From Ignavibacteriota bacterium (GTDB lineage Bacteria; Bacteroidota; Ignavibacteria; UBA10030; UBA6906): 64,000 bases of DNA. Each line of letters opens with the position of its first letter. Position 1 is the first letter of the stretch. Under the pieces are notes generated by a model that was not told the DNA's origin, made no database searches, and saw only the letters and a list, made by a program, of their open reading frames with translations. Position numbers and translations under genes: made by a program. The DNA lies in assembly GCA_963808715.1 (NCBI GenBank), contig CAWEHG010000009.1, positions 8,257-72,256 on the forward strand. Direction: 5' to 3'. Of this stretch, positions 8,347-61,919 are shown piece after piece.

Positions 8347-9522
8347 ATGCGCACATCACGTCTGTCGCGGCGCAGGGCCCTCGGAACACTGGCGGCATCG
8401 CTCCTTGCTGTGCCGGCGGGCCGCCTCTTTTCGGGCACTCTTCAGACGACTCCCACCACTCCCCAGACCCCTCCGCCGAAGCCCGCCACCAACATCGCGG
8501 ACGCCTTGAAACATCCCCGCACGGCGGCGTCGCTCCCGGGACGATTCCCGGGCAAGGTCGTCCGGGCCGTGGATGCGCGGGCGTGGACCTCCAACGAACC
8601 CGATGTCGAGGTCGTGAACAGGATGCTCGAACGGTCTCTGCTCGCCCTTACCGGAGCCGCAGGGATCAACGAGGCCTGGAGCATGTTCGTCACGCCGGAC
8701 GACATGATCGGACTGAAGGTGAACCCGGTGGCCGGCAAACTCCTCTCCACCAGCCCGCAGCTGGTCCACGCCATCATCCGCCAGCTGACGGCGGCGGGCA
8801 TTCCCAGGGATCGCATCGTCATCTGGGACCGGCGGGAGTTCGAGATGCACGAAGTCGGGTTCACCGCGGAGACCTTCCCCGGCATCCGGATCACCGGAAC
8901 CGAACGGAAGGACGCCCAGGGATCATTCCACGACAAGGAGGGGAAGCTGCATAGCGAGAAGGTCATCGACCGGGACTGGTACTACTGGGCCGATGTGGAG
9001 GGCGAGTACGACGACGAGCACCCTTCCGTACATGGTGAACGAGGGGAAGTACTCCTACTTCACATCGATCTGCACGAAAGAGGTCACCAAGATCATCAAC
9101 CTGCCGATCCTCAAGAACGCGGGCTCGTCGGTGACGCTCTGCCTGAAGAATCTGGCGTACGGGGCGATCTCGAATACCGGGCGCCTGCACAAGCAGCTCT
9201 GGGCCGAGACCTGTGCGGAGGTGCCGGCATTCCCGCCGCTGCGCGACAAGGTGGTGCTGAACATCGTCGACGGCATCAAAGGCTGCTACCAGGGAGGACC
9301 CGCGGCGCAGATCCGCAGTACATCACCAATTTCAACACCCTGCTTGTCGGGACCGACCCCGTCGCCGTGGACAGGGTCGGGTACGAGATCATCCTCAAGA
9401 AGCGGATCGAGGAGAAGATCCAGAAGGAAGAAAACCCGAAGGGACGGCTATTCCTTGAACTTGCGGAGAAGCTGGGGCTGGGCGTGGCGGATCCGTCGAA
9501 GATCGAACGGGCAGAGGTGTAG
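8347..9522 (+). CDS. Tat-signal DUF362 domain protein, two compensating frameshifts
   Basis: MRTSRLSRRRALGTLAASLLA twin-arginine leader. IGLKVNPVAG and IVIWDRREFE are DUF362-like. The central part (LPYMVNEGKYSYFTSICTKEVTKIINLPILKNAGSSVTLCLKNLAYG) is readable only in the frame of ORF 8993..9877. Breaks near 9015 and 9300. Confidence 0.55.
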   Translation: MRTSRLSRRRALGTLAASLLAVPAGRLFSGTLQTTPTTPQTPPPKPATNIADALKHPRTAASLPGRFPGKVVRAVDARAWTSNEPDVEVVNRMLERSLLALTGAAGINEAWSMFVTPDDMIGLKVNPVAGKLLSTSPQLVHAIIRQLTAAGIPRDRIVIWDRREFEMHEVGFTAETFPGIRITGTERKDAQGSFHDKEGKLHSEKVIDRDWYYWADVEGEYDDEHPSVHGERGEVLLLHIDLHERGHQDHQPADPQERGLVGDALPEESGVRGDLEYRAPAQAALGRDLCGGAGIPAAARQGGAEHRRRHQRLLPGRTRGADPQYITNFNTLLVGTDPVAVDRVGYEIILKKRIEEKIQKEENPKGRLFLELAEKLGLGVADPSKIERAEV

Positions 9523-9526
9523 GCGG

Positions 9527-10366
9527 ATGAACTCTGCCCTGGAAAGACTCCGGAACTCTTCTGCACGCGGAATGCGGTGTGCCGTCGTGGCCGCGCTCGC
9601 CGCTCTGCTCCCGGCCGTCGGGAGAGCCGCTGAGCCCCTCCTGCGTGCCGGTGATCTCCAGGGGCTCTCCGTCACGGCCGCGACGACGTACGAAGGGAAG
9701 GCCCTCTACGGATACATCGACGGCGGCGCGGATCTGTACCGGGAATACGGTTTCGTGCGGCTGACGGTCCAGAGCTCTCACCCTCGACGGGGAGGAGTAC
9801 ACGGCGGAGATCTACCGCATGGCGGACGACTCCGCGGCCTTCGGGATCTTCTCGGTCTCCGCCTCCGATGGGGCTGACTCGCTCGGGCCTCACTCTGCCT
9901 CCACCCTCTACCAGTCCCAATTCGCCTCAGGCCCCTTCTTCGTCCGCGTGGTCAACTATACCGGTTCCGCCGGCGCTTCGAAACGATCCGAGCAGATGGC
10001 TTCAGTGATCCGGGCGAGAACAGGCACCTCGGCGTTTCAGCTTCCGGAGGTCCTGCGGAAGTTCCAGGGAGAGGCGGGCCGGGTTCGCTACGTGCGCGGG
10101 CCGCTGGGTATTCAGAACGGCGGGCTCGACGAATGGAGCGATCCCCTGGAAGGGCTGGAGCCCTACTCGGGCTACCTCGTCTCCGCCGGCCAGACCGGGC
10201 GGATCGTCCTGTTGCAGTTCACGACCCCTGCCGCCTCAGAAGAGTTCCTGCGCGGACGGATCGGCCGGCGACGCCGGGGCAGGGCTTCCGGAAGTACTCC
10301 CCCGCACAGGTCCTCGTGGTGGACGGACCCGAAGAGCTGCGCACGGCGATCCTCAAGGATCCGTAA
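9527..10366 (+). CDS. Hypothetical secreted protein, two frameshifts
   Basis: ATG 9527 lies 4 nt after the DUF362 stop. Hydrophobic leader CAVVAALAALLPAVGRAAE. Pieces in three track frames (8993..9877, 9819..10487, 10133..10366) join at about 9778 and 10265. Block GKALYGYIDGGADLYREYGF. No family recognised. Confidence 0.4.
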
Positions 10367-10379
10367 CGATATCGCCCGT

Positions 10380-11768
10380 TCAGTCCTGGACGGTTTTGAT
10401 GAAGAATGTGTAGTAGGGTTTCTTCTCGGCCATCCGCAGCATCATCAGTCCGAGTTCCCTCGCGTGATAGTCCCCCCACATCGATGACTCCCCGCACGGT
10501 ACTTTTCTCCCGTCCGGGACGTGGTCCCACCCGTTCGGCCGGTGATAGACCGAGTGGAGGATCAGCCCCTGATGATCTTCGTCCGTCGAGAGGTAGGGCT
10601 CGTCGAAGAGGGTCTTTGCGATCGTCAGGCCCGCCTGGAGGTATCTCCTCCCCGGCTTGAACCGGCCCAGGGTATTGAAGTACCCGCCGAGACGCAGGAA
10701 TCCCTGGGCGGCGATGGCCGCCGCGGAGCTGTCGACCGGCTCGTGCTCGTTGTAGGGATCCGCCGGAGCGTCGAGGTAGTTCCCCAGTTTGACCAACCCG
10801 GGAGCACCGGTGTCCCAGTAGGGGATCCCGTCGGTGGAGGTCTGCTCGATATAGAAATCGGCCACCGCTTCCGCGGTCTCCTCGAAGCGTTTCAGCGCCT
10901 CGTCCTTGCCTCCGTAGGGTTTCAGGGCTTCGTCCGTGAGGGTTCTCAGGAATTCCAGCTCTTCGGCGTACCCGAGCAGTATCCAGGCGAGCCCGCGGGT
11001 CCAGGTGCTGAACGGGCTGTATCCCTGCTGGGTGCTGGGACAGCGGTAGGAGCCGTCGTTCAGGTTGAAGATCGACTCGTGGGCGACCCGTCCGCGAATG
11101 TCGTAGGAGTCCCGTCCCTTCCCGAAGTAGACGTTGTACTTCGAGGTGGCATCCGCATGCGCCATGAGGCGGTCCAGCAGGGAGATCTTCCGGTCCCGTT
11201 CAGCCATCAGCACGTGCCCGAGCTGGTGGGCCACCGCGAGCGACCGGACCGACCGGATCGTATCCGCGAACAGGGAATGCGGCCCGTTGAACGAATAGAT
11301 GAACCCCTCGCCGTTGCCCAGGTCTGTCCATCGGCTCGCCTGGACCGCGCCGCTCACCTTCAGGGCCATCTCGCAGAATGCTTTCTGCCACTCGTCGGCC
11401 GGGAGGATCCCTTCGCGCAACAGCCTGTGCAGGTTGCCGTAGGTGCTGACGTTGTTGAAGCCGTGGTCGTGCACGCCGATGTGGCTGACATGGGTGGCCA
11501 TATGCTTGAGGGTCCCCTGCCGGCCGATCTCGAGGAACTGATCGTCGCCGGTGGCGTCGAACTGCAGGATCGCGGAACCGAACTGAAACCCCTGGGTCCA
11601 CTCGGTCCATCCGCGCGAGGTATAGTTCCCCTTCTCGGTGAAGACCGGCGTTCCGCGCCCGGGGTCCCAGGAGCGCTGCAGACCCAGGATCTTGGTCCCC
11701 GACAACTCGAAAAGCCTCCCGATACGCTCCCGGAGGTCCATCACGTCGACATCATAATCGATCAGCAT
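10380..11768 (-). CDS. GH88/GH105-like unsaturated glucuronyl hydrolase family protein (six-hairpin), cytoplasmic
   Basis: Intact 462-aa ORF with no signal peptide. Blocks HDHGFN, YSPFSTWTRGLAWILLGY, DSSAAAIAAQGFLRL, CGESSMWGDYHARE. Family call is from motif style, not a search. Confidence 0.6.
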   Translation of the reverse strand: MLIDYDVDVMDLRERIGRLFELSGTKILGLQRSWDPGRGTPVFTEKGNYTSRGWTEWTQGFQFGSAILQFDATGDDQFLEIGRQGTLKHMATHVSHIGVHDHGFNNVSTYGNLHRLLREGILPADEWQKAFCEMALKVSGAVQASRWTDLGNGEGFIYSFNGPHSLFADTIRSVRSLAVAHQLGHVLMAERDRKISLLDRLMAHADATSKYNVYFGKGRDSYDIRGRVAHESIFNLNDGSYRCPSTQQGYSPFSTWTRGLAWILLGYAEELEFLRTLTDEALKPYGGKDEALKRFEETAEAVADFYIEQTSTDGIPYWDTGAPGLVKLGNYLDAPADPYNEHEPVDSSAAAIAAQGFLRLGGYFNTLGRFKPGRRYLQAGLTIAKTLFDEPYLSTDEDHQGLILHSVYHRPNGWDHVPDGRKVPCGESSMWGDYHARELGLMMLRMAEKKPYYTFFIKTVQD

Positions 11769-11804
11769 ACGAATCCTCTATTCAATAGTTCGCTACGATC
11801 CAGC

Positions 11805-12593
11805 CTACAGCCGCCGCAGATGGAAGCCACCGTCCACGTAGATCACGGAGCCGGTGGAGTACGGGAAATCCCCCGCGACCAGCGACGCCGCGGCCTTCCC
11901 CGTGTCCTCGTCGGTCCCCCAGCGGCGCTGCGGGACGAGCCCCTGCTCGATCATCGTGTCATACTTCTCTTTGACCCCGCTCGTCATGTCCGTTGCCATG
12001 ATCCCCGGGCGCAGTTCGTACACCTGAATACCTTCATGAGCCAGGCGCACCGCCCAGAGCTGGGTCACCATGGTCAGTCCCGACTTGGAGACGCAGTACT
12101 CTCCGCGGTTGACGGAGGCAGTGTTCGCCGAAATGGACGACACCATGACCACGGAGAACCCGTGCGGCAGCAGGGGCCTGACCTTCCCGGAAAGCCAGTA
12201 GTTCGCCAGGATCTGCGTCAGGAAGAACGGGCCTTCCAGGTTCACCTGCATGACCTCGCGAAATGAATCGAGGGAGGTCTGGGTGACATCCGCCCGAACC
12301 CGCGGGCCCATGCCGGCGTTGTTGACCAGCGCATCCACCCGCCCGAATGCCTCAAGGCTCCGTTCCAGCAGGGAAGCCCGGTCAGCCGCTTCACCCACGT
12401 TCGCCTGGACCGCGACGAACCGCTGGCGCGGATCGCTCTTGACCGATTCGCACAGGCCCACGGTCTCTTCGGCTGCACGGCTGTTCCCGGCGAAGTTCAC
12501 CACCACCGAAAAACCCTTGCGCGCCATCGAGCAGGCGATACCCCGCCCGAGGCCCCTGCTGGCGCCGGTAACGAGGACGACAGGGAGTTCCAT
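11805..12593 (-). CDS. SDR family oxidoreductase (3-ketoacyl-reductase-like)
   Basis: ATG 12593 (MELPVVLVTGASRGLGRG, TGxxxGxG). NNAG. YCVSK (YxxxK). It forms the 3' part of track ORF 11805..13550, whose 5' part is out-of-frame read-through of the next gene. Confidence 0.85.
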   Translation of the reverse strand: MELPVVLVTGASRGLGRGIACSMARKGFSVVVNFAGNSRAAEETVGLCESVKSDPRQRFVAVQANVGEAADRASLLERSLEAFGRVDALVNNAGMGPRVRADVTQTSLDSFREVMQVNLEGPFFLTQILANYWLSGKVRPLLPHGFSVVMVSSISANTASVNRGEYCVSKSGLTMVTQLWAVRLAHEGIQVYELRPGIMATDMTSGVKEKYDTMIEQGLVPQRRWGTDEDTGKAAASLVAGDFPYSTGSVIYVDGGFHLRRL

Positions 12594-12601
12594 GGCTGCT
12601 C

Positions 12602-13510
12602 CTATGTTGTTCCTTTGCGCCGCAGGGCTGCGAGCGCCTTCCTGGTGAATACCGTGCGTGCCAGGTCGGCATAGAGCTCCGGCCGTCGCGAAGCGGTGAC
12701 CGCCGCGGTCCGCCCGAACTTCTTCTCGAAAAAGAAATGGGTGATCCGCTGGCGCTCGAGATCCAGGTCCTGCGTCACCATGCCGACCCCCCGGCCCGCA
12801 TCGGCGAGGATCAGCCCGTCCCTTCCGATGATGCTCGTCCGCCCCAGCATCTTTCCGGGCATCCAATCCCCTTCTTCGTATCCGTACGAAGCGGAGACCA
12901 GATACAGTCCGGTGTCCACGGCACGGGCACGGTACCGGATCTCCCAGTCGACCTCGCCCCACGAGCCCTGGACGTGGGGGAAGAGCAGCACCTCGGCCCC
13001 GCGCAGCATCAGCACCTGCGCGACCTCGGGGTACTCCACATCCATGCAGGTCATGATCCCCACGCGGCAGCAATCGAGCGAGAACACCGTAAGGTCGTTG
13101 CCGGCCCTGATCCCCAGCCGCTGTTCCTGGATGATGGGATGCGCCTTCTGATAGCACCCCGCGATCCTTCCGCGCCGGTCGAGGAGCACGACCCAGCTGC
13201 TCAGGACCCCCCGGTACGTGCCGAACACCGGCACCGCAATGTTCATCCGGTGCGCCCGCGCCATGATCCCCACCGCCTCGACGAACGGTCCGGGGATCGG
13301 GTCGGGCCGGTAGTCGCGGCGGGCAGACGAGGTGCTCCGGTGGTAGAGATTGGAGTACTCCCCGAGAAGGACCAGGTCCGGAGACTGCCGGCCGGCGGTT
13401 TCGAGCATATCGCAGAGGACCTCGAGGGTCCGCCGTCGCCGTTCCTGCAGGTTCCTGCCCGGGACGTCCGCGGGAAGCTGGACACCCATCACTCGCACGA
13501 TCCTTGCCAT
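12602..13510 (-). CDS. Carbon-nitrogen hydrolase (nitrilase superfamily) protein
   Basis: Intact 302-aa ORF. Glu-Lys-Cys triad context LGEYSN, YQKAHP, GIMTCMDVEYPE. Confidence 0.8.
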   Translation of the reverse strand: MARIVRVMGVQLPADVPGRNLQERRRRTLEVLCDMLETAGRQSPDLVLLGEYSNLYHRSTSSARRDYRPDPIPGPFVEAVGIMARAHRMNIAVPVFGTYRGVLSSWVVLLDRRGRIAGCYQKAHPIIQEQRLGIRAGNDLTVFSLDCCRVGIMTCMDVEYPEVAQVLMLRGAEVLLFPHVQGSWGEVDWEIRYRARAVDTGLYLVSASYGYEEGDWMPGKMLGRTSIIGRDGLILADAGRGVGMVTQDLDLERQRITHFFFEKKFGRTAAVTASRRPELYADLARTVFTRKALAALRRKGTT

Positions 13511-13512
13511 GG

Positions 13513-15273
13513 CTACCCCTTCTCACGTGATACGTACAGCAGCACCCCACCCATCGCCAGCAGGAAGAGCCCGGCGATCAGGTTGATGATGGACGGGGAG
13601 ACCGGCCCCGACGGAAGTGCCACGCATGCCCCCAGGACCACTGCCAGGACGACGCATACCTGTCCGAGAAGCCTGTAGACCCTCAGCCCGGCCGGATCGA
13701 ACGCCGCCCGTTCCGCGATCACCGGCTCTCGCAGATCCCGTTCCAGCGCGAGCAGGCCCGCGTGCCGCGGGTCGTCTTTGCGGAACCAGAACGCCGATCC
13801 GAAGAACACCAGGGTCGCCGCCGCGGTCTCGCTGAGCATGTTCCGGGTGAACGCCTGGTCTTTCCACAGTCCCAGGGACATCAGGACGACCGCGGTCACG
13901 ATCGCGGCGGTGCAGGAGGCCATCCCCGACCACCAGGGAGTGCGCCGGTAGATCATCCCCAGGGCGACGGGCATCATGAACGCCGCCCCGAGGGAATAGT
14001 ACTCCAGCGCGAACGCGAAGGCCCCCCCCAGCTTGGGGATGAACAGTGCCGTGACCGTCCCGAGAGCCCCCACGACCAGCATGGTCATCCTGGCGAACCG
14101 CAGCTGCCGCGACTCCGGCGGTTCTCCCCGGCCGAACCGCTTTTTCAACGGCACGTAGATATCGCGGGTCAGCGTCGCCGCCAGCCAGTTGAACGCGTCG
14201 TTCGCCTGACCGAGCGTGGCCGAGAGGATGGCGGAGACGACGAATCCGATCATCCCGTGGGGGAGCAGGAGGAGCGCCAGGCTCACGAAGGACGCTTCCG
14301 CAGGGACGGCAAGCGAGGGCCAGATGGAAGCGATATCGGGGAAGATGATCCGCGACGCCATGACCGGGAGGATCCAGAGCAGGGGACCGACCAGCGACAG
14401 GACCGCGCACAGGATCGCCATCTTGCGCGCGTCCCGTTCGTCCGGTACGCTCTGGTATCGCTGCACGAGTGACCAGGCGACGTTGTACCCCAGCATGATG
14501 TTGATGAGGTACGAGAGCAGGAAGAGCGGTTCCGCCATCTCCCCGTTCAGTCCGAAGTACCCCGGCGGGGCCTCCCGGACCAGGCGCTCGATGCCGCCGA
14601 AAAATCCTGTCCCCGCCCCGAGGTACTGGAACGAGACCACGAACACGATCAGCGTCATCGTCAGGATGATCACGAACTGGACCGAATCCGAAAGCACCGC
14701 CGCCCAGAGCCCGCCGACCATCGTATAGACGGTCATGACGGTCCCGACGACGAGGATCGACATCTCGAACCCGGTGAGCGATACGAACCCGAGATCGAAG
14801 CTCCTGTCGGCGAATCCCAGGGCCGTCGAGACGAAAATGCAGAGGATGTAGAGCCCCTGGCCGATCCCCACGATCTGAGGGATCACCGCCGTGACCGAGT
14901 AGAAATAGGTGGTGGACGGAGAGAACCTCCGGCTCAGGAACTCCAGCGGCGTGTTGATGCGGGCACGGCGCCACCGGCTGGAAAAATACGCCGCCCCGAC
15001 GAGGTAGGCCCAGAAGGCGGAGGTGAAGATCAGGATGGTCCCCGCGCCCCGCAGGTAGATGAACCCCGCGGCGGCCACGAACATGAAGGCCGAGAACCCG
15101 GAGACCCAGTTGGAAAGTCCCGCGATGAGCCACGGGACCTTCCCCCCTCCCTTGAAGTACTCGTCCGTGTTCCTGTTCTTCCGGGCCGCATAGAACCCGA
15201 CCCAGAGGACGATCACGAAATAGAGGACGATCAGCCCGTAGTCGATGCCGTTGACCGTGTTGAACGCTGGCAT
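13513..15273 (-). CDS. Sodium:solute symporter (SSF) family transporter, copy C
   Basis: Intact 586-aa ORF made of many hydrophobic segments. SSF-type N-terminus YFVIVLWVGFYAARKNRNTDEYFKGGGKVPW. Starts 2 nt upstream of the CN-hydrolase gene. Confidence 0.8.
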   Translation of the reverse strand: MPAFNTVNGIDYGLIVLYFVIVLWVGFYAARKNRNTDEYFKGGGKVPWLIAGLSNWVSGFSAFMFVAAAGFIYLRGAGTILIFTSAFWAYLVGAAYFSSRWRRARINTPLEFLSRRFSPSTTYFYSVTAVIPQIVGIGQGLYILCIFVSTALGFADRSFDLGFVSLTGFEMSILVVGTVMTVYTMVGGLWAAVLSDSVQFVIILTMTLIVFVVSFQYLGAGTGFFGGIERLVREAPPGYFGLNGEMAEPLFLLSYLINIMLGYNVAWSLVQRYQSVPDERDARKMAILCAVLSLVGPLLWILPVMASRIIFPDIASIWPSLAVPAEASFVSLALLLLPHGMIGFVVSAILSATLGQANDAFNWLAATLTRDIYVPLKKRFGRGEPPESRQLRFARMTMLVVGALGTVTALFIPKLGGAFAFALEYYSLGAAFMMPVALGMIYRRTPWWSGMASCTAAIVTAVVLMSLGLWKDQAFTRNMLSETAAATLVFFGSAFWFRKDDPRHAGLLALERDLREPVIAERAAFDPAGLRVYRLLGQVCVVLAVVLGACVALPSGPVSPSIINLIAGLFLLAMGGVLLYVSREKG

Positions 15274-15279
15274 GGACGT

Positions 15280-17604
15280 CTACCGTTTTGACGGCGACTT
15301 GAACCCCGGGACCCTCCACTGAAAGTCGGGATCCACGTAGGGTTCGTCGTTCTCGTGTCCCTGCATGAGTGCGATCTTCCTCCGGAGCTGGTCGGCGAAG
15401 TTCCCGTGGTAGTAGATGAAGGTGGTCTCCCCGACGTCCGAGAAGATCATCCACGGGGTCCGTGAGCGTTCTGCGTGTGCCAGAAGCGCCTTCGTGTTCT
15501 CGATCTCGTCGAGCACCATCTGCCGGAGGATCTCGCGGCATTTCTTCTTTGTTGACTCGTCGCGCGACTCCAGGTAGTTGTGCACCCCCGCGATCCACGC
15601 GGTCACGTTCCGCTGGTTGCGGTACCAGCAGAGCATCGCCACGTACCGGTCGTGGAGGTCCTGCGCTGCGGCCTCCCCCTTGCCGCCCCGGGCGCGCGCC
15701 AGAAGTGCGGCGGAACGGTCGTGCGCCTGCTGCATCACCGGCATGACGTTCTCGTTGATCATGGAAAGACATCGCATCGCGTCGTCCGGCTGGATCAGGT
15801 CGAACCCGACGTCGTACCGGAAGTCGACCCGGCAACGGTTGTGCGGAGGAGCCAGAAGGAACTCCTCATAGTATCGCCGGTCCTCCTCGGAGATCTTTTC
15901 GATGTCGGGGACGATCGGGCGGACGAACAGCCGGTACCAGACCCCCCAGCCGGAATAGATCTGCACCGGGACCGGGAAGGCCCTGTAGGCGTCGTCCGAC
16001 AGGTGCCACAACTGGACCAGCTCCGGGGCGAGCTCCGGGCCGATCCACTCCGCCGCTTTCGAAGCCACGAACCGGTCGTACGACAGTCCCGGATCGGCCT
16101 GGAACGCCCTCAGCAGCTCTTCGTTGATGTTGAAGGGTGTCAGGGAACGCGGGGTCGTGCCGCCGGTGTAGGCCAGCGTCGATACGGACTGCCGGGCCAT
16201 GGCGACGAGCTTCTCGTGCACCAGTCGCGGGAACGGAACGCCCAGCAACGGCTCATGGTTCCAGACGGAGCCGCCGGAGAAGTAGACGTCCGTTTCAGCC
16301 CCTTTGGTCCGGATCTGATCCATGACCGTCTTCTCTGCCGGATCGAACCCGTTGAACAGGGCCGTGCCGAGCGTGGCTTTTCGTTCCGGGTATCGGGGAT
16401 GCTTGTACTCTACCTCCCATCCCCGGGAGACCAGCGAACCGGTTTCCACGTCGATCCCGTCCTCCAGCTGGGCCCACAGGTATTTGTGTTCCGCGACGAA
16501 GGCCTCCAGGCGGAGCAGTGTACGGAACTTCGGGTTGACCTTGCGGCCCGCGTCGCGCAGGACCTTGTGGAAGCGGATCAGGTTGTTCGCGGCCGACTCG
16601 GCGATCTCGGTGTCCCCTTTCCACTCGCGGATGACGTAGCCCCCCCCGTTCCGTCCGACGTACAACGAGCTCGTGTACTCGAAGCCGGCGCCGCTGTCGT
16701 TGGACCAGATGGCGATGAAGTCCAGCAGAGGGACCTCCCGCACGAGGTTCTCCATCAGCTCGGCGTAGTGTTCCCGTACCACCGGATGGGCGATGGAAAG
16801 GTTGTACCGCGGATGCCAGCTCCGGATGGGATGATCCACCCTCGCCCCCCGGAGCATGGGATACCGCTCCAGCAGCGCGTCCGGAACGGATCTCGGCTCG
16901 AAGCAGGTGATCCCGGCCGAGAGGCCGTACTTCTCGGCCAGCGCCGCGTTCGTCTTCAGGAAATTCAGGTTCGCCTGAAGGTAGTCGCTGTCATAGTACC
17001 CCCGGTTCAGGCGGCTGGAGACGAACTGGTCGAGCGCGGGGCAGTAGGTATAGAACCTGTGGAGCACTTCTCCGACGGGGCCGCGCTCGAAGGGGACCGC
17101 AAAGGCGAGACCGTTCACTTCGGCGTGTGAGAACCCGAGTCGGGCGAGGTTCCGGATATGTTCTTCCCGGTCGAAATCCCGGAGGGTCCGGTTGTGCATC
17201 GTCAGGAAGCTGTCGTACGAAGGGCGGACCCGCGGGAATGCCGGCGTGATCGTTTTCCCCTGGCGGAACTCCTCCACCGGCAGGTCGATCCATTCTTCGA
17301 TCGCCGAACTCCACGTCCGGAAGAGGAGATGTGGGGCGGACGCGAGGATCTCGATCCCCCCTCCGGGGAGCAGCCGGACGATCCCCCACCCGTTCGGGCC
17401 GCGCAGGGCCGGGTGCTCGGGAGCGGCACCGGTCTGGACGGCGATACGAACGCCCGTGGCGGGCAGCGGTCCGCCCGTTCCGGGCGTCGCCCGGGGAGCC
17501 CAGCCCCCCCTCAGTTCTGACGCAACGGTCTGCTCCACCCGCGGACCGCCGGCGGAGGTGTGGATCGTCGTGACCGTGGAGAAGAATTCCCTAAGTGTTG
17601 GCAT
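15280..17604 (-). CDS. Large cytoplasmic protein of unknown family (family X, intact copy)
   Basis: Intact 774-aa ORF with AGGGAG 8 nt before ATG 17604 and no signal peptide. Shares long blocks with the broken copy at 59703-61916 (RGARVDHP, NDSGxGFE, SSLYxGRNGG, IREWK). No named family recognised. Confidence 0.7.
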   Translation of the reverse strand: MPTLREFFSTVTTIHTSAGGPRVEQTVASELRGGWAPRATPGTGGPLPATGVRIAVQTGAAPEHPALRGPNGWGIVRLLPGGGIEILASAPHLLFRTWSSAIEEWIDLPVEEFRQGKTITPAFPRVRPSYDSFLTMHNRTLRDFDREEHIRNLARLGFSHAEVNGLAFAVPFERGPVGEVLHRFYTYCPALDQFVSSRLNRGYYDSDYLQANLNFLKTNAALAEKYGLSAGITCFEPRSVPDALLERYPMLRGARVDHPIRSWHPRYNLSIAHPVVREHYAELMENLVREVPLLDFIAIWSNDSGAGFEYTSSLYVGRNGGGYVIREWKGDTEIAESAANNLIRFHKVLRDAGRKVNPKFRTLLRLEAFVAEHKYLWAQLEDGIDVETGSLVSRGWEVEYKHPRYPERKATLGTALFNGFDPAEKTVMDQIRTKGAETDVYFSGGSVWNHEPLLGVPFPRLVHEKLVAMARQSVSTLAYTGGTTPRSLTPFNINEELLRAFQADPGLSYDRFVASKAAEWIGPELAPELVQLWHLSDDAYRAFPVPVQIYSGWGVWYRLFVRPIVPDIEKISEEDRRYYEEFLLAPPHNRCRVDFRYDVGFDLIQPDDAMRCLSMINENVMPVMQQAHDRSAALLARARGGKGEAAAQDLHDRYVAMLCWYRNQRNVTAWIAGVHNYLESRDESTKKKCREILRQMVLDEIENTKALLAHAERSRTPWMIFSDVGETTFIYYHGNFADQLRRKIALMQGHENDEPYVDPDFQWRVPGFKSPSKR

Positions 17605-17658: not shown

Positions 17659-18675
17659 CTATTTTCCTGTCACTGCTTCTTTCGCCGCGAGCAACACCTC
17701 CGTCGGGGTGCCCAGAGGGACGACGCCCGTTCCGAGGATGAATCCCGGATACCCTCCGGCGGCCGCAACTTCTGCCACCGCCCTGCGGTGCACCTCTTCC
17801 GGCCGATCGGTGAGGAATCCTGTCGGGTCGAGGCTTCTTCTGAAGGCCCGGCCCGCCCGTCTGCAGCGCTCGAGAAACGGCGCCAGTGGCGTCCGAAAAT
17901 CGCACAAGATATTGTTCGCTCCCGTTTCCAGATAGGCGTCGAGGATCGGAAGCGTGTTCCCGCCGATGATCAACGGTACGTGTTTCACCCCCTCCCGGTG
18001 GAGGAGATCGATCAGCTGCCGCGCGGGCTCGATCGCGAGAGCGCGGTACGAAGCCGGCGAGATGACCTCCGGGGAAGCGTGGGAATCATAGATGACCACG
18101 CCGCATCCCCTCCTGGCGAATGCCCGCGCGTAGGCGGCGAGCACACCGACGCAGAATCCCATCAGTTCGCGGACGACATCGGGTTCGCTGCGGACGGCCA
18201 TCAGGAGGTTCTCGGCCCCCATCACGCCCGCTGCCATGGAGAAGGGGCCGCTGAGCGCGCCGCGGACGACGGTCTGTCGGCCGATCGCCCGCTCCACCCG
18301 TTCCGCGGCATGAAGGAACAGGGGCATACGCCCGTCCACTTCCGGATCCGGTACGCGCAAAGCACTGACAGGGGCTCCCTCCGCCAGGACCTCTCCGCCG
18401 GGGAGCAGAGACGGGATCCCGGGATCGTCGCCATCCGGATAGTGCACCCGCGCCCCCGCGGCTTCTGCCTCCACGTTGTACGGATCGACCCCCACGACGA
18501 TCGCATCCGCCTGCAGCTCCTCGAATTCCCGAAGCGTGGCCTGCACCAGCAGATCCGCGTCGCGGCAGAGGCGTGAAGGGACGCTTCCGACGAACCAGGC
18601 CTTGTGTTCGAGCACCGCCGGTACGAACGGGATCCGGTCGGGCTTGCGGCCGTCGAGGACATCCAGCAATCTCAT
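17659..18675 (-). CDS. URO-D fold protein, paralogue 3
   Basis: ATG 18675 (MRLLDVLDGRKPDRIPFVP). Blocks SGPFSMAAGVMG, VVIYDSHASPEVISP, LIIGGNT, FILGTGVVP. The track fuses it to the upstream kinase (ORF 17659..19704). Confidence 0.75.
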   Translation of the reverse strand: MRLLDVLDGRKPDRIPFVPAVLEHKAWFVGSVPSRLCRDADLLVQATLREFEELQADAIVVGVDPYNVEAEAAGARVHYPDGDDPGIPSLLPGGEVLAEGAPVSALRVPDPEVDGRMPLFLHAAERVERAIGRQTVVRGALSGPFSMAAGVMGAENLLMAVRSEPDVVRELMGFCVGVLAAYARAFARRGCGVVIYDSHASPEVISPASYRALAIEPARQLIDLLHREGVKHVPLIIGGNTLPILDAYLETGANNILCDFRTPLAPFLERCRRAGRAFRRSLDPTGFLTDRPEEVHRRAVAEVAAAGGYPGFILGTGVVPLGTPTEVLLAAKEAVTGK

Positions 18676-19611
18676 TGCAGAGGCCCCCGTTGTTCCACCA
18701 GAACTCCTCCTTCCAGGGCGGCGATCCCGGCGCTCGAGGCGCAAGAGACCTCCCACCTCTGCTGCATTGGCGGCCCCAGCGGCCGCCCCCCGCACGAGAG
18801 CGCGGGCGAAACTCTCCCCTGCCTCGAGCGACGCCAGAAAGCCGGCGATCATGGAGTCGCCGGACCCCGTGGCGTTCACCGGACGCACCGGGGGCGGAAC
18901 GATCTTCCACCAGTCTGTCCCATCGGTCGCGTAGCACGGTCGCGGGCCGTCAGTGATGATGGCAGAGCGGATCCCTATCCCCACGAACCGCCGGAGCGCC
19001 ATTCTGAATTCCTCGTCGGTTTCCAGCGTCCCGCCGAACGTCTGCCGGAACTCATCCGCATTGACCTTGACCATTTCCGGCAGCGCCTCCACCCCCAGCC
19101 GGAACGTTTTCCCGTAGGAATCCAGAGCGGAGGCCTTTCCGGCCCGCCGGGCGGCGCCGATGATCCGGGCGTAGACGTCGTCGGTCGCCGCGCAGGGCGA
19201 GCTCCCGCAACAGACCACCCACCGGGCTCCGGGGAAGAGGGCAACACACTTCGCCACCAGAGCGTCCGCCTCGGCCGACGTCACGGTGTGGGGCGGTTCG
19301 AAGATCGCCGTCCAGGTGCCGTCCGGTTCCCGGTAGGTCACCCCCTCGCGCGTGGCGGAGGCGACCTCGACGAAATCGTGCGGGATCCCTTCCGCGGAGA
19401 GCAGATCCGCCAGCATTTCACCCACCGGTCCGCCCCAGCATCCCGTCGCCACTGTCGGCACGCCGAGCAGGTGCAGCTGGCGCGCGACGTTCACCCCCTT
19501 GCCGCCCACCACCATGCCTACGTGGGTCGCCCGGTGGGTCCTCCCCCGCGTGAGGTTCTCCACCTCGACCGTCTTGTCGAGCATCGGGTTGAGCGTGACC
19601 GTCAGGATCAT
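18672..19611 (-). CDS. PfkB-family hexose-phosphate kinase (1-phosphofructokinase/tagatose-6-P kinase type), probable frameshift near 3' end
   Basis: ATG 19611 overlaps the aldolase stop (ATGA). MILTVTLNPMLDKT, GGKGVNVARQL, NATGSGDSMIAGF. Shifting one base near 18750 gives ..AGIAALEGGVLVEQRGPLQ-TGA, and this TGA (18672-18674) overlaps ATG 18675. Confidence 0.7.
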
Positions 19612-20439
19612 CGCAGCAGTTTCAGGGCCGAAGCCACCGTTGCCTCTTCGTGGACCACCGCGCAGAGGGCGGCGATCATCTTCTCCATGCGCGGATGCTG
19701 CCACACGTTCCGTCCGATGATGACGCCGTGGGCGCCTGCCTCCACCGTGTCGTGCGCCAGGCGCAGGAGGTTTTCGTCGGTGCTTTTCATCGGCGGACCG
19801 CCTGCCACGACCACCCGCGCGCCGGCGGCCGAATCGACCACCGAGCGGAAGCCGGCAACGGTCCCCACGAACCGGGTCTTCACCACTTCCGCCCCGGCTT
19901 CCACACCGATCCTGACCACCTCCGCGGTCTCGCGGACAGGATCGACGGCCTTCCCCGAGCGCTTGAAGATCTCGGTCCCGAAATGGTTGTTGAGAAGGCT
20001 GGGGGCGATGATCTCGGCGACGAGCGGGACCCCCAGGTCATCGGCCTCCGCCGCCGTCTTTCCCAGGCGGATCATGGACTCCGACTCGATCGGCGTTCCG
20101 AGGAACGTGAAGACGATCATCGCGTCAGCGCCAAGGGCGAGTCCCTGCCGGACCGTGTACATCTCCTGGTAGTCGGTGGGCTTGACCACGTACTTCGTGA
20201 ATCCCCCGTCGATCCTGAGCATGATGCCCAGGTCTCCGGCCGCCGGGGCGACGTTCTTCAGGATCCCCGGCGTCACCAGGATCCCGTCGGCCTTCGTCCG
20301 GGCGATCCGTTCGGTCAGAGTGAACGGGTCCTCGATCCCGGGAACGGGCCCGGAAAAAGAGCCGTGGTCGAACGGGATGATCACCACTCGTTGGTTCTTC
20401 CAGATCTTCTGCAGGCGCAGCTGTTTTCCGGTGATGCAT
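19608..20439 (-). CDS. Class I aldolase, DhnA/LsrF (DeoC/LacD-like) family, frameshift just after start
   Basis: Body is track ORF 19608..20387 (VVIIPFDHG, LRIDGG, VVKTRFVG, GRNVWQH). The conserved N-terminus TGKQLRLQKIWKNQR has no in-frame start. ATG 20439 (GAGGAA 6 nt upstream) is one base out of frame, so an indel lies near 20428. Confidence 0.65.
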
Positions 20440-20460: not shown

Positions 20461-22777
20461 TCAGTGATTGACCTCTTGATCCAACGCCTTCAGTTCTCGG
20501 TTTTCACCACGTCTTCCCAGAGCCTCCACTTCGAGAACCCCACCCGCGGCGGGGTCCCGTCGAGCTGCAGGGAATGCGAATTCGGGAGAGCGCCGACCAG
20601 CGTGTTTCCCACGGTGCGAGATCTTCAGGAAGTTCGAGCAGGCGTACCAGAGGGTTCCGGGTTCCTGCCTCGCGCACAGGAAGTACCCGTCCGTCTCGAA
20701 ATCGCCGAACGAGACCTTCCCGAGATCGTACAGGGCCCGTGGACGGATGTTCTCCCGCGCCAGTTCCATCTCCAGATCGATCCGCGCATAGATCGTCCAG
20801 CGGCTCTTTCCCGAAACCAGTTCGAGCGCCAGCGCGCGCGAGGGAGCGCTTACCGGAAGCAGCCGGACGGACGGGAGTGATGCCGGGAGCTTCGCGGAGC
20901 GGTCGTGCGGCACCAGCAGGGTCACGAAGACCTCATGGTCGCCGGCCTTATACTGGCTTGCGATGGATTGGTAGACGGCCGTTTCCTGGAGACCGTGCCG
21001 GCTGATCGGTTCCACGCTGTCGACCTTGGCGTAGGTCTCGGGGAAGCAGACCGCCAGCGATCGGTCGCGCGGGAAGACGTACCCGGGAAGCGTATCCGTG
21101 GCGACGTCGTACCAGTGTTCGCCCCGGGAAAGGATCTTTCCGGCATGCCAGAAATTCGTGAACGTGAAGTAGTCGGAGCGGAGGATCTTCACGCCGTCGA
21201 TCACCACGAAACAACCGGGTTCCTTCACGTAGACGACGATCCGGTCCCAGCGGTACCCCAGCGCCTCGTCCTCGACGCGGGTCCGGCTCATATCCGCCTC
21301 CCGGGTCTTCAGGAAATCGACCTCTGGCCGTTTGCACCGGCCTGTAGGCTCCGGAGTTCCGCGCGAACTCGAGCGGCGATTGCGCGGGGTCCCGTTTGTT
21401 CAACCGGACCACCAGCCGGTTGTGGAAATAGTCCTGTCGCCAGGCGCCGTACTTCCCGCTCGGCAGGCCGTCACGGTACCCCGCATCGTGCAGGAGCAGC
21501 GACCCCCGGTCCATCAGCGAGACGATGCTGTTCTCGTCCGCGTGGCCGTGGTGCATCTTTTCTTCCTCCACGGAGATGGTGTTGCGCAGGTAGGTCCGAT
21601 CCAGGAGTCCGCCGTCCCCCTCGTCGCGGTAGTTGACCAGAAGGTATGTGCTGGTCGGGTTCCCAGCCGTTCCGGAACACCACCTTCTTGCCGATGACGT
21701 CATCCAGCACCTCCTGGCTGAGCGACGTCGGCCGGGCCGGGCGTGACCGATTCGTCGGTCCAGCGGTAGGCATCGGAGAGGTGGTAGGCATCCCCCACGC
21801 TGAATCCGGCTCCTGGCCGGCGGGCGGCTGCAAGGACCGACGCCGCGGCCCATTTCCATTCGGGGTGCTTGAAGACCGCCGCTCCCTTTTCGAAGAAGGC
21901 GACCATCCGCAGTCCCGCCGCGGACGACTGCCAGCCGGCGTCTCCGTAGTCCGGGATGGTGCCGGAGGGTCCGATCAGTTTCGTGTAGAACTCGAAGTAG
22001 TACCGGACGAACGCGGACGAGTACACTTCCGGGTGCCCGGCCGCTTCGGCGTACGAGAAGAGCGCATGCAGCCAGACCGGGTTGTAGTTCGAGGCATCCT
22101 CGATCTCCCAGTGACCGAGGTTGTCCATCGCGATGACCCGGGCCATCTGCCGCCAGGCCGCGGCGCGGGGATGCTCGGGAAGCGCCATCGCCGCATACTG
22201 AAGCGCCTCCGCCCGTAGCATCGCCCGGTTGTGACCTCCCCACTCGGGGAACCGGAAGATGAAATCCACGCTCTGCGCCAGGTCCCGTTCGATCTTCTCG
22301 CGCTGGGCGGCGGTCATCACCCCGCTGCCGCGGATCCGGAGATATGCCCTGGCATAGGGAGGAAGGAAGAAGAAGTTGCTGAGCGCGGGAACACCGTCCG
22401 CATACTCGGCGCGGGAAGCCGCGAACCCTTTCGGGAGGATCTCCCGCAGGTCTCCGTAGGTCGCCAGCAGGGTCGCGGCCCGCTCGGCGTAGTCGCGCTG
22501 GCCGGTCTGCTCGTACAGGAATCCCAGCGTGGCCGCGAGATAGATCGGGTGGGCCGGGGCATCGTACCCCCAGAGAATGTTGGGCTTCGAGGTCTTCTTC
22601 CACTGCTCCACGATCCCGGGATTCTGCTTCCATCCCTTCTTCCGCGGCCTTGACGATCTCCTGGAGGTAGACCTCCTTCTGCGCGAACGCGGCCGCAGGC
22701 AGCAGAAGGAGCGCCAGGACGGCCCTCGCGAACAACGAACACACTGGAGCGCTGGCGAACCCGGGGACAGCATTCAT
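20461..22777 (-). pseudogene. Heparinase II/III-like polysaccharide lyase family protein 1, Sec signal, reading frame broken at least 4 times as sequenced
   Basis: ATG 22777 (MNAVPGFASAPVCSLFARAVLALLLLPAAAFAQ) overlaps the upstream TGA. Pieces lie in track ORFs 20948..23557, 21700..22773, 21471..21833 and 20461..21291, with breaks near 22640, 21720, 21650 and 21300. HHGHADENSIVSL motif. An alternative C-terminus ..VGNTLVGALPNSHSLQLDGTPPRVGFSKWRLWEDVVKTEN ends at 20490. Confidence 0.65.
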
Positions 22778-47325: not shown

Positions 47326-47388
47326 CTCAACGATACAGAAAAGGTCCGCAAGAGGCAAGCCGCCCCACGGGGAGCGGAGCGGCTCCGG

Positions 47389-49306
47389 TCACTTCCGGTC
47401 GTACTCCGCCGCACTGCGGATCTCGGAGCGCTTTCCGAAGTACCACATCAGAGCGCCGAACACCACCATGATGACCACGATCGCGCCGAGCACGGTGGCC
47501 TCTCCCGGACCGAGATCGGTGAAAAAGATCAGGCTCATCAGCAGGCCCATCACGATGGTCGTCCCTCCCACCAGCGGGAACGTGGAGATCTGCTTCCTCC
47601 CGGCACCGAACACCTCTTTCGCCACGTCCACCGGCGTGTCGAGCTTCTTGAAGAACTCCACCACCACCGCACGCTCCGCGTCGGTCTCCGTCGCGAACAG
47701 GTGGCCGAAGAGATAGGTGCTGCCGCCGAGGATGAGCGCCGCCGCTCCCGCCGCAGCGTAGGGGATCCATGCGCCATCGCCCCACAGTGCGCCGCCGTTC
47801 ACGTTCAGGAAGAAGATCGCCCCGTACACCGCCGTCACCGCCGCCCCCAGCAGGACCAGCTTCCCCTTGTGCTCCAGGTACCACCTTCCCAGAATATAGG
47901 ACGACGCGAAGATCCCGAAAGAGGTGACGAACGCCAGGTACACCTGCGGACCGATATCCCAACCGAGGAACCAGCGCGCCACGACGCCGACCAGCAGCCC
48001 CCAGGAGATCGAGGCGACCGCGCTCCAGCGCGGCACCCGCCGCATCAGCAGCCCGAACGCCACCGGCACCACCACCGGGATGTTCAGGAGCGTGAAGAAC
48101 GTCTGCATCCAGTTGAAGATGCCGAACTGGCTGTTGTTGAAGACCACCGCCATCACCGGTGACGAACAGCCCCAGCAGGATCGAGAAGATCCTGCCGACC
48201 TTCAGCAGCCCCACGTCCGTGATCCCGGGCTTGAACCATCCCTGATAGATGTCGCGCGACAGGATCGAGGAGACCATGTTGTAGACGGAGCTGAGCGTGC
48301 TCATGGTGGCCGCCAGCATCGCCGCGATGAACACCCCGATCAGGCCGTTCGGGAGCAGCTTCATGCACAGAGCGATGAAGACCAGGTCCTGGGGGTTCTT
48401 CCCGATGTAGGGCTTGAAGAACTCCACCTGGCTCAGGTCAGGCCAGATCACGCTGGCCACCAGCGGCGGGATGCCGAACACCAGCGGCACCGTGACGAAG
48501 AGCCCGCCGGCCAGCAATCCCACCTTCCGGGCGTCTTTTTCGTCCTTCACGCTGTAGAACCGCTGCGCCGCCCCGGCGGCCGTACCCAGGCACATGATGA
48601 GGAAGATCGAGACCAGCCAGTGCTCGGTGTAGTGGACGCCGTTGTACATGTGATCGAACGACAGTGCCGGCAGGGCCGCGAGGAGCTTGTCCAGCCCCCC
48701 CACCAGCCCGAGGCTCAACGGCATAACGATGAACGTGATGCTCAGGAGGATCACCCCCTGCACGACGTCGGTGACCGAGACCGCCCAGAGCCCACCCATG
48801 AAGGTGTAGAGCAGGATCACCACGCCCGTCACGATCGTGACCATCGTGATGTCGAGTCCCATCACCGGCGCCAGGAGCTTGCAGGTGGCCGCCAGCTGCA
48901 CCCCGGCCGACAGGGTGAAGTTGGTGGCGATGACCATGCTGAGGATCTGCTGCGTCGTGAAATTGAAGCGGGTATAGGTGTACTCGACGGGAGAGATGGA
49001 GCGGGTCCGGCGCCAGCGCGACGCCGTCATCTGCGAGCCCACCAGGTACGAAACCGACCAGGTCCCGAAGTAGCAGATCGCGAACCAGCCCGTGGCATAG
49101 GCGAACCCCGCCGCGCCGGTGAATGTCCAGGCGCTGAAGTTCGCCATGTAGAGCGTCATGCCCGACACCCACCAGGGGATCATACTTCCCCCCGCGAAGT
49201 ACTCTTTCGCCCCCTTGTTGACCTTCATGAAGTAGAGGCCGATCCCCAGCATGAAGAGGAAATAGGCCCCGATCACCAGATAGTCGTAGATGTTCACGCC
49301 GTTCAT
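47389..49306 (-). CDS. SSF family symporter, copy B (tandem duplicate), one frameshift
   Basis: ATG 49306 (AGGAGA upstream). MNGVNIYDYLVIGAYFLFMLGIGLYF. RWRRTRSISPVEYTYTR. The 3' third is in ORF 47389..48156, joined near 48158. The track fuses it with copy A into a false 1317-aa ORF. Confidence 0.75.
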
Positions 49307-49350
49307 GGAGTCTCCTGTGTCATCCTGCCGTTCGGCTGCAACTGCCTCGA

Positions 49351-58791: not shown

Positions 58792-58793
58792 GA

Positions 58794-59579: not shown

Positions 59580-59620
59580 GCCCCCCTCCTCAGCGATGAT
59601 GTTCTCTGATCTTTGTTTGC

Positions 59621-59679
59621 CACGGAGACACGGAGGCGAACTTTGGGTGAGCAATACGACAATCCTCCGTGTCTCCGTG
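59621..59679. repeat. 16-bp perfect inverted repeat (CACGGAGACACGGAGG / CCTCCGTGTCTCCGTG) with 27-nt loop
   Basis: Read directly, arms 59621-59636 and 59664-59679. It lies in the largest spacer of the array (59580-59702), 24 nt downstream of the family-X copy 2 stop on the coding strand. No U-tract follows. Confidence 0.4.
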
Positions 59680-61916: not shown

Positions 61917-61919
61917 CGG

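Follow-up and report, generated by a model that had tools for sequence, protein, structure and literature searches.

What does a large protein do that recurs in several bacterial phyla and carries no family name? The question is raised by a window of 64,000 nucleotides (nt) from an Ignavibacteriota bacterium (contig CAWEHG010000009.1, positions 8,257 to 72,256; "the window" below is this whole stretch), in which a minus-strand gene at 15280-17604 encodes a protein of 774 amino acids (aa). We call the protein family of this 774-aa protein family X, the gene itself copy 1 and its product P0001; L-, G- and C-numbers denote surveyed loci, genomes (G000 being the window's own) and contigs, respectively. 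An earlier note, made from the letters of the window alone, had suggested a glycosidase or sugar-modifying enzyme acting on an imported oligosaccharide. The predicted structure, together with conserved residues and gene context, leads us to propose that family X is a new family of exo-acting glycoside hydrolases (GHs) and that copy 1 is a cytoplasmic member which would cleave an imported small glycoside or oligosaccharide. We give this reading a probability of roughly 60%.

A widespread protein family without annotation

P0001 matches no Pfam family at E ≤ 1 and no NCBIfam model, and for ten distant members Pfam gave nothing meaningful. Among the chain sequences of the Protein Data Bank (PDB), phmmer and a profile of 47 sequences retrieved chance matches only (E > 0.1, to inositol pyrophosphate kinase and PARP). 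The earlier statement that no named family is recognisable is therefore borne out in Pfam, NCBIfam and PDB sequences, by single sequences as well as by profile.

A word-indexed search scored 8000 candidates, of which 1347 proteins reached E ≤ 1e-3. The top 120 of them are 57-95% identical, mostly 773-803 residues long (range 673-835), and none has a Pfam domain. An exhaustive HMMER search of 1.84 billion representatives gave 445 clusters at 50% identity with E ≤ 1e-3 (103 at E ≤ 1e-30), and a pattern scan of one genome per GTDB species located at least 517 loci. The best 80 of these come from metagenome-assembled genomes of Ignavibacteria and other Bacteroidota, from Opitutales/Puniceicoccaceae, KSB1, Kryptoniota and Spirochaetales, and include two cultured strains, Pelagicoccus sp. 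SDUM812002 (L072) and Puniceicoccaceae bacterium K14 (L073). A distant subfamily of 590-640 residues that has no N-terminal domain occurs in Gemmatimonadota, Acidobacteria and Glassbacteria and is likewise unannotated. Of 201 sampled genomes from the window's own class, 23 (15 of 100 genera) have family X, in many cases with two paralogues or with copies in tandem. Family X is thus a large and widespread family without annotation in the libraries searched (Pfam, NCBIfam, PDB sequences).

Predicted fold and structural matches

A first model of P0001, built on a 35-sequence alignment of close relatives, reached a predicted local distance difference test score (pLDDT) of 75 and placed the most conserved loops poorly. 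For a second alignment, Opitutales and KSB1 orthologues and the distant subfamily were added, giving 74 sequences down to 17% identity, and the AlphaFold model based on it reached a pLDDT of 93.7 and a predicted template modelling score (pTM) of 0.94. DSSP divides this second model into an N-terminal alpha/beta domain, a (beta/alpha)8 barrel and a helical C-terminal domain (Table 1). The barrel strands span residues 125-129, 160-162, 229-235, 294-300, 361-365, 384-388, 438-442 and 476-480, and the (beta/alpha)-barrel that had been proposed for the middle of the protein is accordingly present in the model with all eight strands. An N-terminal alpha/beta domain of this kind also precedes the barrel in GH20, GH67, GH89 and GH115.

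Structure prediction and Foldseek had been named as a check of the earlier proposal. Compared with the PDB, the second model gave 152 Foldseek matches at E ≤ 1e-3, the best being the GH138 structure 6hzg (E 8e-15). All of the top 50 listed among these 152 are glycoside hydrolases, mostly exo-acting and three-domain, which supports the suggestion of a glycosidase at the level of the predicted fold. The families represented are GH138 (6hzg), GH20C (5a6b), NAGLU (4xwh), GH67 (1mqr), GH115 (5by3), CpGH89 and GH84 (6pv4). Most alignments are near full length (748-871 columns), and since they span about 770-830 columns they also cover the N-terminal domain. The first model retrieved much the same families apart from GH138, with NAGLU reaching the highest template modelling (TM) score (0.48/0.51).

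Sequence-profile comparison and candidate active site

Members of GH67, GH115, GH89, GH20 and DUF4838 were taken from genomes of the same phylum, aligned, and compared by hhalign with family X and with each other. Aligned globally, family X and GH89 reached a probability of 75-85% (E 1e-6 to 3e-6, ~640-660 columns), and locally 20-31% (E 5e-4 to 1e-3). The local alignment with DUF4838 reached 30% (E 5e-4, 544 columns), and those with GH67, GH115 and GH20 stayed below 1% (GH67/GH115 0.2-0.8%). Among the known families, probabilities were 94% for GH67-GH115, 95% for GH67-GH20 and for GH115-GH20, 96% for GH89-GH20 and 99.8% for DUF4838-GH20; GH89-GH67 (2%) and GH89-GH115 (0.2%) were as weak as the comparisons with family X. 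Judged by these profiles, family X is an outlying relative of the superfamily, more divergent than most of the named-family pairs compared, and for this reason we call it a new family and not a new member of an existing one.

Ten residues are invariant in all 74 sequences (R252, G253, R255, V256, D257, D303, G305, G320, E372, P563), and a further set is 85-100% conserved among 47 sequences (N164, E236/P237, H279/Y280, S304, G307, Y315, G317, N319). More specifically, R252, R255 and D257 follow the strand 229-235, D303 follows the strand 294-300 and E372 follows the strand 361-365, so that, going by the secondary structure of the model, the conserved residues would sit at the C-terminal strand ends, the canonical active-site face of the barrel. 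D303 and E372, on adjacent strands, are our best guess for a catalytic pair. D257 and E236 may take part in catalysis along with them, and a possible role of the invariant Arg pair is to bind a carboxylate or some other anionic group. At low confidence, hhalign places D303 on the conserved Asp of the GH89 motif 'ADTFNE' and of the DUF4838 motif 'QND'.

Several points weigh against the glycosidase reading. TM scores of about 0.5 at 8-12% identity indicate a shared architecture and not close kinship, and the links of family X to known GH families at the level of sequence profiles are marginal, given the local hhalign probabilities of 20-31%. GH89 has two catalytic Glu residues, an acid/base in the D-x-F-N-E motif and a nucleophile in the P-E-G motif, whose positions in family X are occupied by G307 and F491, respectively; E309, two residues past G307, is conserved in no more than 24 of 47 sequences. 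Relative to GH20, the register of the strands is ambiguous; the D-E pair of GH20 maps to the next strand in the DUF4838-GH20 alignment. Because the alignments with GH89, DUF4838 and GH20 disagree on the register and are of low confidence, the catalytic residues are not assignable by homology. Furthermore, SSF (solute:sodium symporter) transporters, one of which is encoded next to copy 1, have small solutes as their usual cargo, and the substrate may accordingly be something other than an oligosaccharide.

A last such point is that CAZy gains families faster than Pfam. Family X could therefore be part of a CAZy family that has been described but is represented by no Pfam or NCBIfam model and no solved structure, and that would go unrecognised with Pfam, NCBIfam and the PDB. 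We hold this to be improbable: the sole name carried by the more than 180 homologues listed is 'hypothetical protein', no solved structure aligns above a TM score of 0.58, and full-text literature searches found no paper on the gene cluster or on family X. GH139, a 2-O-methyl-fucosidase family that would have suited the methyl link discussed below, was ruled out on its fold, an (alpha/alpha)6 toroid as in GH95, whereas family X has a TIM barrel.

The same fold might also serve a different carbohydrate chemistry, with family X acting as a glycoside phosphorylase, transglycosylase, lyase, or sugar isomerase/epimerase on an imported compound. The invariant R252 and R255 and, in most members, H258 could bind phosphate or carboxylate, the classical catalytic pairs of GH89 and GH20 are not conserved, and the protein is cytoplasmic and encoded next to kinases. 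However, the top 50 listed structural matches are all hydrolases, and TIM-barrel phosphorylases such as GH112 are absent from the top matches. Moreover, 35 of 230 full-length members have signal-peptide-like N-termini. Since exported members exist, the family's chemistry would not depend on a cofactor or partner from the cytoplasm, and outside the cytoplasm phosphorolysis is unusual. We consider a change of chemistry unlikely.

The lack of the canonical catalytic pairs of the nearest families would equally suit a catalytically inactive protein with a glycosidase-like fold, serving in binding, as a scaffold or in regulation. This we regard as highly improbable, as no variation is seen, even at 17% identity, in polar and charged residues of the barrel's active-site face, and the gene lies in catabolic operons, often overlapping enzyme genes or only a few bases from them.

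Genomic context across lineages

To place the proposed glycosidase in its context, we surveyed 29 loci of at least 15 kb of the Ignavibacteria type, whose X orthologues are 58-71% identical and in which X is present by construction. Gene order is largely conserved. It runs from an M20 deacylase, a ROK kinase and an optional URO-D gene to a ~750-aa heparinase-like protein, a DhnA-type class I aldolase and a 1-phosphofructokinase (1-PFK)-type kinase of the PfkB family. These are followed, as optional genes, by an MtaA-like URO-D, a B12-binding protein and an MtaB-like gene, then by X and a glycerate kinase, and finally by an SSF symporter (or an ABC transporter instead), a CN-hydrolase, an SDR and a GH88-like gene. 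PfkB is present in 28 of the 29 loci, the ~750-aa protein in 27 (within 6 kb), glycerate kinase in 24 and the MtaA-like URO-D in 22; in L001, glycerate kinase follows X within 1 nt. In the class sample of 201 genomes, whose counts overstate independence because the genomes are related to each other, all 15 of 15 genomes with the ~750-aa protein also carry X, X occurs in 11 of 14 genomes with MtaB, and MtaB is missing from 12 of 23 genomes with X.

An SSF symporter gene lies within about 10 kb of X, and often next to it, in Ignavibacteria, in Opitutales and in two distant subfamilies. This recurrence of the symporter in unrelated lineages lends support to the idea of an imported substrate. In Opitutales, X (48-51% identical) directly follows a Hepar_II_III_C protein. 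Its other neighbours there are a xylose-isomerase-like TIM barrel, FG-GAP/ASPIC, a putative GxGYxYP hydrolase, DUF455, a TonB-dependent receptor, LacI and AraC regulators, a 700-aa SSF symporter, an enolase-superfamily protein, a class V aminotransferase and a GFO/IDH/MocA oxidoreductase. In a Spirochaete, GH78 and GH15 stand beside X. GH38 overlaps X by 4 nt in L060 and lies near X in L046, L002, the window and the locus of a third copy in the window's genome (see below); BNR/sortilin propellers are found near X in some other loci. For the distant subfamily, whose members bear signal peptides themselves, the neighbours include an SSF symporter, beta-helix proteins, a GHMP kinase, a GH109-like oxidoreductase, an Opp-type ABC transporter, an MttB-family gene and Amidohydro_2. 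Taken over all lineages, the most widely recurring neighbours, though not in every locus, are a solute symporter and a heparinase-like partner.

The corrinoid genes of the Ignavibacteria loci raise the alternative that X itself takes part in methyl chemistry. It could release methanol for the MtaB-like enzyme by hydrolysing a methyl ester or methyl glycoside, or it could act as the methyltransferase that activates the substrate and charges the corrinoid protein. The gene immediately upstream of X is MtaB-like in 12 loci, 16 of the 29 Ignavibacteria-type loci have an MtaB-like gene within 10 kb of X, and MtaB also adjoins a second, more divergent X paralogue in two genomes (G242, G257). Copy 1 follows an MtaA-like URO-D gene and copy 2 a MetE-like gene, one distant member lies near an MttB-family gene, and X is found in most MtaB genomes of the class sample, as given above. 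To our knowledge, the known substrate-activating corrinoid methyltransferases are all TIM barrels, which would also fit. Nevertheless, apart from the X genomes of the class sample that have no MtaB, three of the five Opitutales genomes with X, including both cultured strains, lack MtaB anywhere, and the Opitutales loci hold no corrinoid genes within 10 kb of X. The family as a whole shows no conserved Cys/His ligands for a Zn site, members that carry signal peptides are out of reach of a corrinoid protein in the cytoplasm, and X has no Pfam match to PF12176, PF06253 or PF01208. The clusters, furthermore, already hold candidate donor enzymes, namely the MtaB-like protein and several URO-D paralogues. 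A role of X in the methyl transfer as such therefore seems rather unlikely to us.

Proposed function and substrate

An exo-glycosidase is the simplest account of the fold, the invariant residues, the exported members and the context. In the pathway that we propose, the ~750-aa heparinase-like enzyme, which is predicted to be secreted in its L001 orthologue, would cut a complex and probably acidic glycan outside the cell, and the adjacent SSF symporter would import a small product. Family X and the probably cytoplasmic GH88-like enzyme would then split the imported product, and the released units would pass to the ROK kinase, the 1-PFK-type kinase, the class I aldolase and also, in most relatives, to glycerate kinase. 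Ignavibacteria would hand any O-methyl groups on to the corrinoid methyltransferases encoded nearby. The hydrolysis by X, the order of these steps and every statement about the substrate are what we infer.

Several substrate ideas are compatible with the data. Unsaturated uronate oligosaccharides, as suggested earlier, would fit the context. The invariant Arg pair and, by analogy, the nearest folds would suit an alpha-linked uronic acid or hexosamine. The corrinoid link would agree with a methyl-etherified sugar, and a glycosyl-glycerate would fit the close spacing of X and glycerate kinase in L001 together with the recurring GH38. The classical unsaturated-uronate (KduD/KdgK) pathway was considered for the PfkB, SDR and GH88-like neighbours and is weakened, as the PfkB protein belongs with the 1-phosphofructokinase/tagatose-6-P kinases and the aldolase is not Eda but a class I enzyme of the DhnA type.

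The methyl-etherified sugar allows a more specific and, at present, doubtful proposal. Family X might be the glycosidase of an undescribed oxygen-independent route for such sugars, freeing an O-methylated sugar or fragment that the MtaB-like, corrinoid-protein and MtaA-like enzymes would then demethylate, passing the methyl group to homocysteine or another acceptor. Its pocket would have evolved for a methylated sugar, and the gene order MtaB-X-glycerate kinase would mark a complete 'methyl-sugar' operon.

Copies of family X in the genome

The earlier note had described two copies in the window, one intact and one frame-broken, and both are found. Comparing copy 1 with the window by tblastn recovered copy 2 in pieces of 34-44% identity at 59706-61727 (summed E 4e-96). 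The pieces fall in the frame order -3, -1, -2, -1, -2, -3, which amounts to at least five frame switches. All of the shared motifs that had been listed (ARLGF(S/T)H, RGARVDHP, AHPxVxEHYxELM, NDSGxGFE, SSLYxGRNGGxYxIREWK, VNPxFR and KIALM...DPD..WR.P) occur in both copies, except that within the last of these copy 1 reads HENDEP and not HxDDxP. The N-terminus of copy 1 lacks hydrophobic stretches, with Kyte-Doolittle values of at most 0.7 over 12 residues, in keeping with the absence of a signal peptide stated there, and the positions described for both copies hold as well: six bases (ACGTCC) separate the stop of copy 1 from the ATG of the SSF symporter, the CN-hydrolase, SDR and GH88-like neighbours are all present, and copy 2 follows the MetE-like gene.

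P0132, the closest intact relative of copy 2, is 40-62% identical in all pieces. The frames that carry the similarity contain no premature stops, and no homopolymers of five or more bases lie at the frame-switch junctions. The G+C content of the window is 61-68%. The assembly G000 measures 4.19 Mb with a completeness of 61.8% and a contamination of 1.5%, whereas a completeness of 100% is reached by relatives of 3.3-4.9 Mb. In two relatives from the same taxonomic family, G053 and G037, the listed paralogues are intact; G033 and G318, which belong to the same order, each have one TGA within a match that represents a second copy. From these sequence data, an assembly indel error appears somewhat more likely than true gene decay as the origin of the breaks in copy 2, because premature stops are absent, the similarity to P0132 is uniform, the completeness is low and the paralogues of relatives are mostly intact. 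Many genes are frame-broken in two zones of the window, at about 24.6-34.8 kb and 59.7-64 kb, which suggests locally unpolished long-read sequence and not widespread decay.

A third family X copy lies on contig C34 at 244450-246631 (L170, about 8950-11130) and is also split across frames. Its surroundings form a glycan-degradation region with GH38, NPCBM, alpha-galactosidase and BNR/sortilin-like genes. In several genomes, tandem family X duplicates lie about 100 nt apart (L046:7553-9937 and 9980-12370; G161:C84; G162:C41; G177:C21). Such tandem copies point to repeated local duplication along with divergence of specificity.

Neighbouring genes in the window

The features of the window that bear on family X are collected in Table 1.

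Table 1. Family X copies, domains of the copy 1 protein, and neighbouring genes in the window (positions in nt of the window).
Feature	Position	Strand	Basis and remarks
Family X copy 1	15280-17604	minus	Uninterrupted open reading frame (ORF), 774 aa, ATG to TAG; homologues align from residue 1 to the end
N-terminal alpha/beta domain (copy 1 residues about 1-120)	17245-17604	minus	DSSP of second model
(beta/alpha)8 barrel (copy 1 residues about 121-505)	16090-17244	minus	DSSP of second model
Helical C-terminal domain (copy 1 residues about 506-774)	15283-16089	minus	DSSP; conserved P563, E700, N703, D753
Family X copy 2	59703-61916	minus	Frame-broken paralogue of copy 1; tblastn
Copy 2 pieces	61727-61425, 61423-61317, 61317-61036, 61066-60773, 60762-60364, 60374-59706	minus	tblastn
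SSF solute:sodium symporter	13513-15273	minus	Pfam SSF, E 5e-32; 6 nt downstream of copy 1
CN-hydrolase gene	12602-13510	minus	59% identical to a Pfam-typed CN_hydrolase
SDR gene	about 11805-12590	minus	Pfam
Distant GH88-like protein	10380-11768	minus	Weak Pfam GH88, E 5e-4; orthologue matches unsaturated glucuronyl hydrolase 1vd5, E 3e-8
PfkB-type hexose kinase (1-PFK type) and MtaA-like URO-D methyltransferase in one ORF	17659-19704	minus	Pfam, NCBIfam; directly upstream of copy 1
DhnA/DeoC-type class I aldolase	19608-20387	minus	Pfam DeoC, E 2e-23; NCBIfam on L001 orthologue
~750-aa heparinase-like protein, frame-broken homologue (at least 3 pieces)	20461-22773	minus	tblastn of the L001 753-aa protein
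MetE-like gene (Meth_synt_2, URO-D/CIMS clan)	61763-62890	minus	Pfam, E 5e-12; directly upstream of copy 2
PhyH-type Fe(II)/2-oxoglutarate dioxygenase gene	58794-59654	minus	Directly downstream of copy 2
Unannotated protein 'u646'	57196-59136	minus	Conserved core from about residue 124 (~520 residues); downstream of copy 2 and PhyH
Two unannotated paralogues, 764 and 506 aa	54873-57167 and 52570-54090	both minus	57% identical over about 430 residues

Around copy 1, the SSF symporter is the probable importer of the family X substrate, and the GH88-like protein is probably cytoplasmic, as it has no signal peptide. The PfkB-type kinase and the MtaA-like URO-D form a single ORF of 681 aa in the window and are two genes 10 nt apart in the orthologous locus L001, so that the joint ORF may be either a real fusion or an indel artefact. 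The ~750-aa protein is intact in L001 (4913-7174), where it has a signal-peptide-like N-terminus; it has no Pfam match, and its only PDB match, to heparinase III, is weak (E 0.31). The MtaB-like gene of the window's genome lies on another contig (C15:8667-10025) and not beside X.

Around copy 2, the PhyH-type gene encodes an oxygen-dependent enzyme within a genome that is otherwise rich in corrinoid (anaerobic-type) methyl-transfer genes. The protein u646 has no Pfam match and no PDB sequence match. Its homologues lie less than 10 kb from family X in 10 loci (Ignavibacteria, Opitutales and one distant subfamily), directly after X in L046 (12410-13996) and L047 (2132-3697), and also at L169:5962-7641; u646 may be a second unannotated partner enzyme. 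Of the two unannotated paralogues, the 506-aa protein has a weak GH65 C-terminal match only and the 764-aa protein (u764) retrieved nothing in a PDB sequence search; their homologues are found near X relatives in L016 and L053. Further along, a 1317-aa ORF on the minus strand (47327-51280) holds two SSF domains (Pfam), and a homologue in L053 is 50% identical to its first half. It may be a tandem-fused transporter or two genes joined by an indel.

Significance

Should family X prove to be a glycoside hydrolase, it would be the founder of a new CAZy family and close a gap in many 'Sus-less' operons for glycan use whose import runs through a sodium symporter. New GH families turn up regularly. 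Family X stands out among them as large, present in several phyla, unannotated, and tied to an unexplained corrinoid methyl-transfer module. In the Ignavibacteria loci, where X is present by construction, it ranks with the PfkB kinase and the ~750-aa protein among the most constant partners of that module within the sugar operon, and because of this constancy its substrate is probably the quickest route to the methylated carbohydrate of the corrinoid module. Literature searches returned nothing relevant on corrinoid-dependent sugar demethylation, on 4-O-methyl-glucuronate together with methanol, or on MtaB in Ignavibacteria, and no account of an oxygen-free breakdown of methyl-etherified sugars was found in them.

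Comparison with known glycosidase families

By predicted fold, the best match of family X is the GH138 enzyme BP0997 (6hzg, 6hzf, 6hze), aligned over ~830 columns with TM scores of 0.53/0.58. Identity is 8% and the root-mean-square deviation about 8-10 Å, and the family X profile retrieved no 6hz* chain from the PDB sequences. BP0997 is an alpha-galacturonidase that acts in exo fashion on an acidic sugar of rhamnogalacturonan II, a glycan that also carries methyl-etherified sugars.

Among the families tested, GH89, which comprises alpha-N-acetylglucosaminidases, has the best sequence-profile link to family X. The two share the three-domain layout (human NAGLU 4xwh, Clostridium perfringens CpGH89 2vc9), with a Foldseek E of 2e-12 over 793 columns for 4xwh. 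In contrast, neither P0001 (E ≤ 1) nor the ten distant relatives match Pfam NAGLU_N, NAGLU or NAGLU_C, and the motifs RGxRxD and NDSGxG...YxGxNG, invariant and specific to family X, are lacking in GH89. In the low-confidence alignment between the two, the catalytic Glu pair of GH89 is not matched by conserved acids in X (G307, F491), while the Asp of its motif is kept as D303. Both families occur with heparinase-like enzymes, and GH89 acts on heparan-type chains.

The beta-hexosaminidase family GH20 (GH20C 5a6b, GcnA 2epl) has the architecture of family X, with a Foldseek E of about 1e-13 to 1e-14. Neither PF00728 nor PF16126 matches family X, which also lacks a conserved pair of neighbouring acidic residues at the aligned strand. 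DUF4838 (PF16126), which presumably corresponds to GH163, served only as a GH20-related family for comparison, and its 'QND' motif aligns with N302-D303 of X.

The alpha-glucuronidases of GH67 and GH115 (1mqr, 5by3) have the fold in common with family X (Foldseek E 1e-10 to 3e-11), with no match of X to PF07488 or PF15979 and hhalign values at the bottom of the range given above. GH67 enzymes are intracellular exo-enzymes that act on imported acidic oligosaccharides, including 4-O-methyl-glucuronosyl ones. Set beside these families, and going by its predicted structure, family X would form a new and so far unclassified branch within a known structural class of glycosidases, set apart by Pfam, NCBIfam, PDB-sequence and hhalign comparisons, the comparison with GH138 covering fold and PDB sequences.

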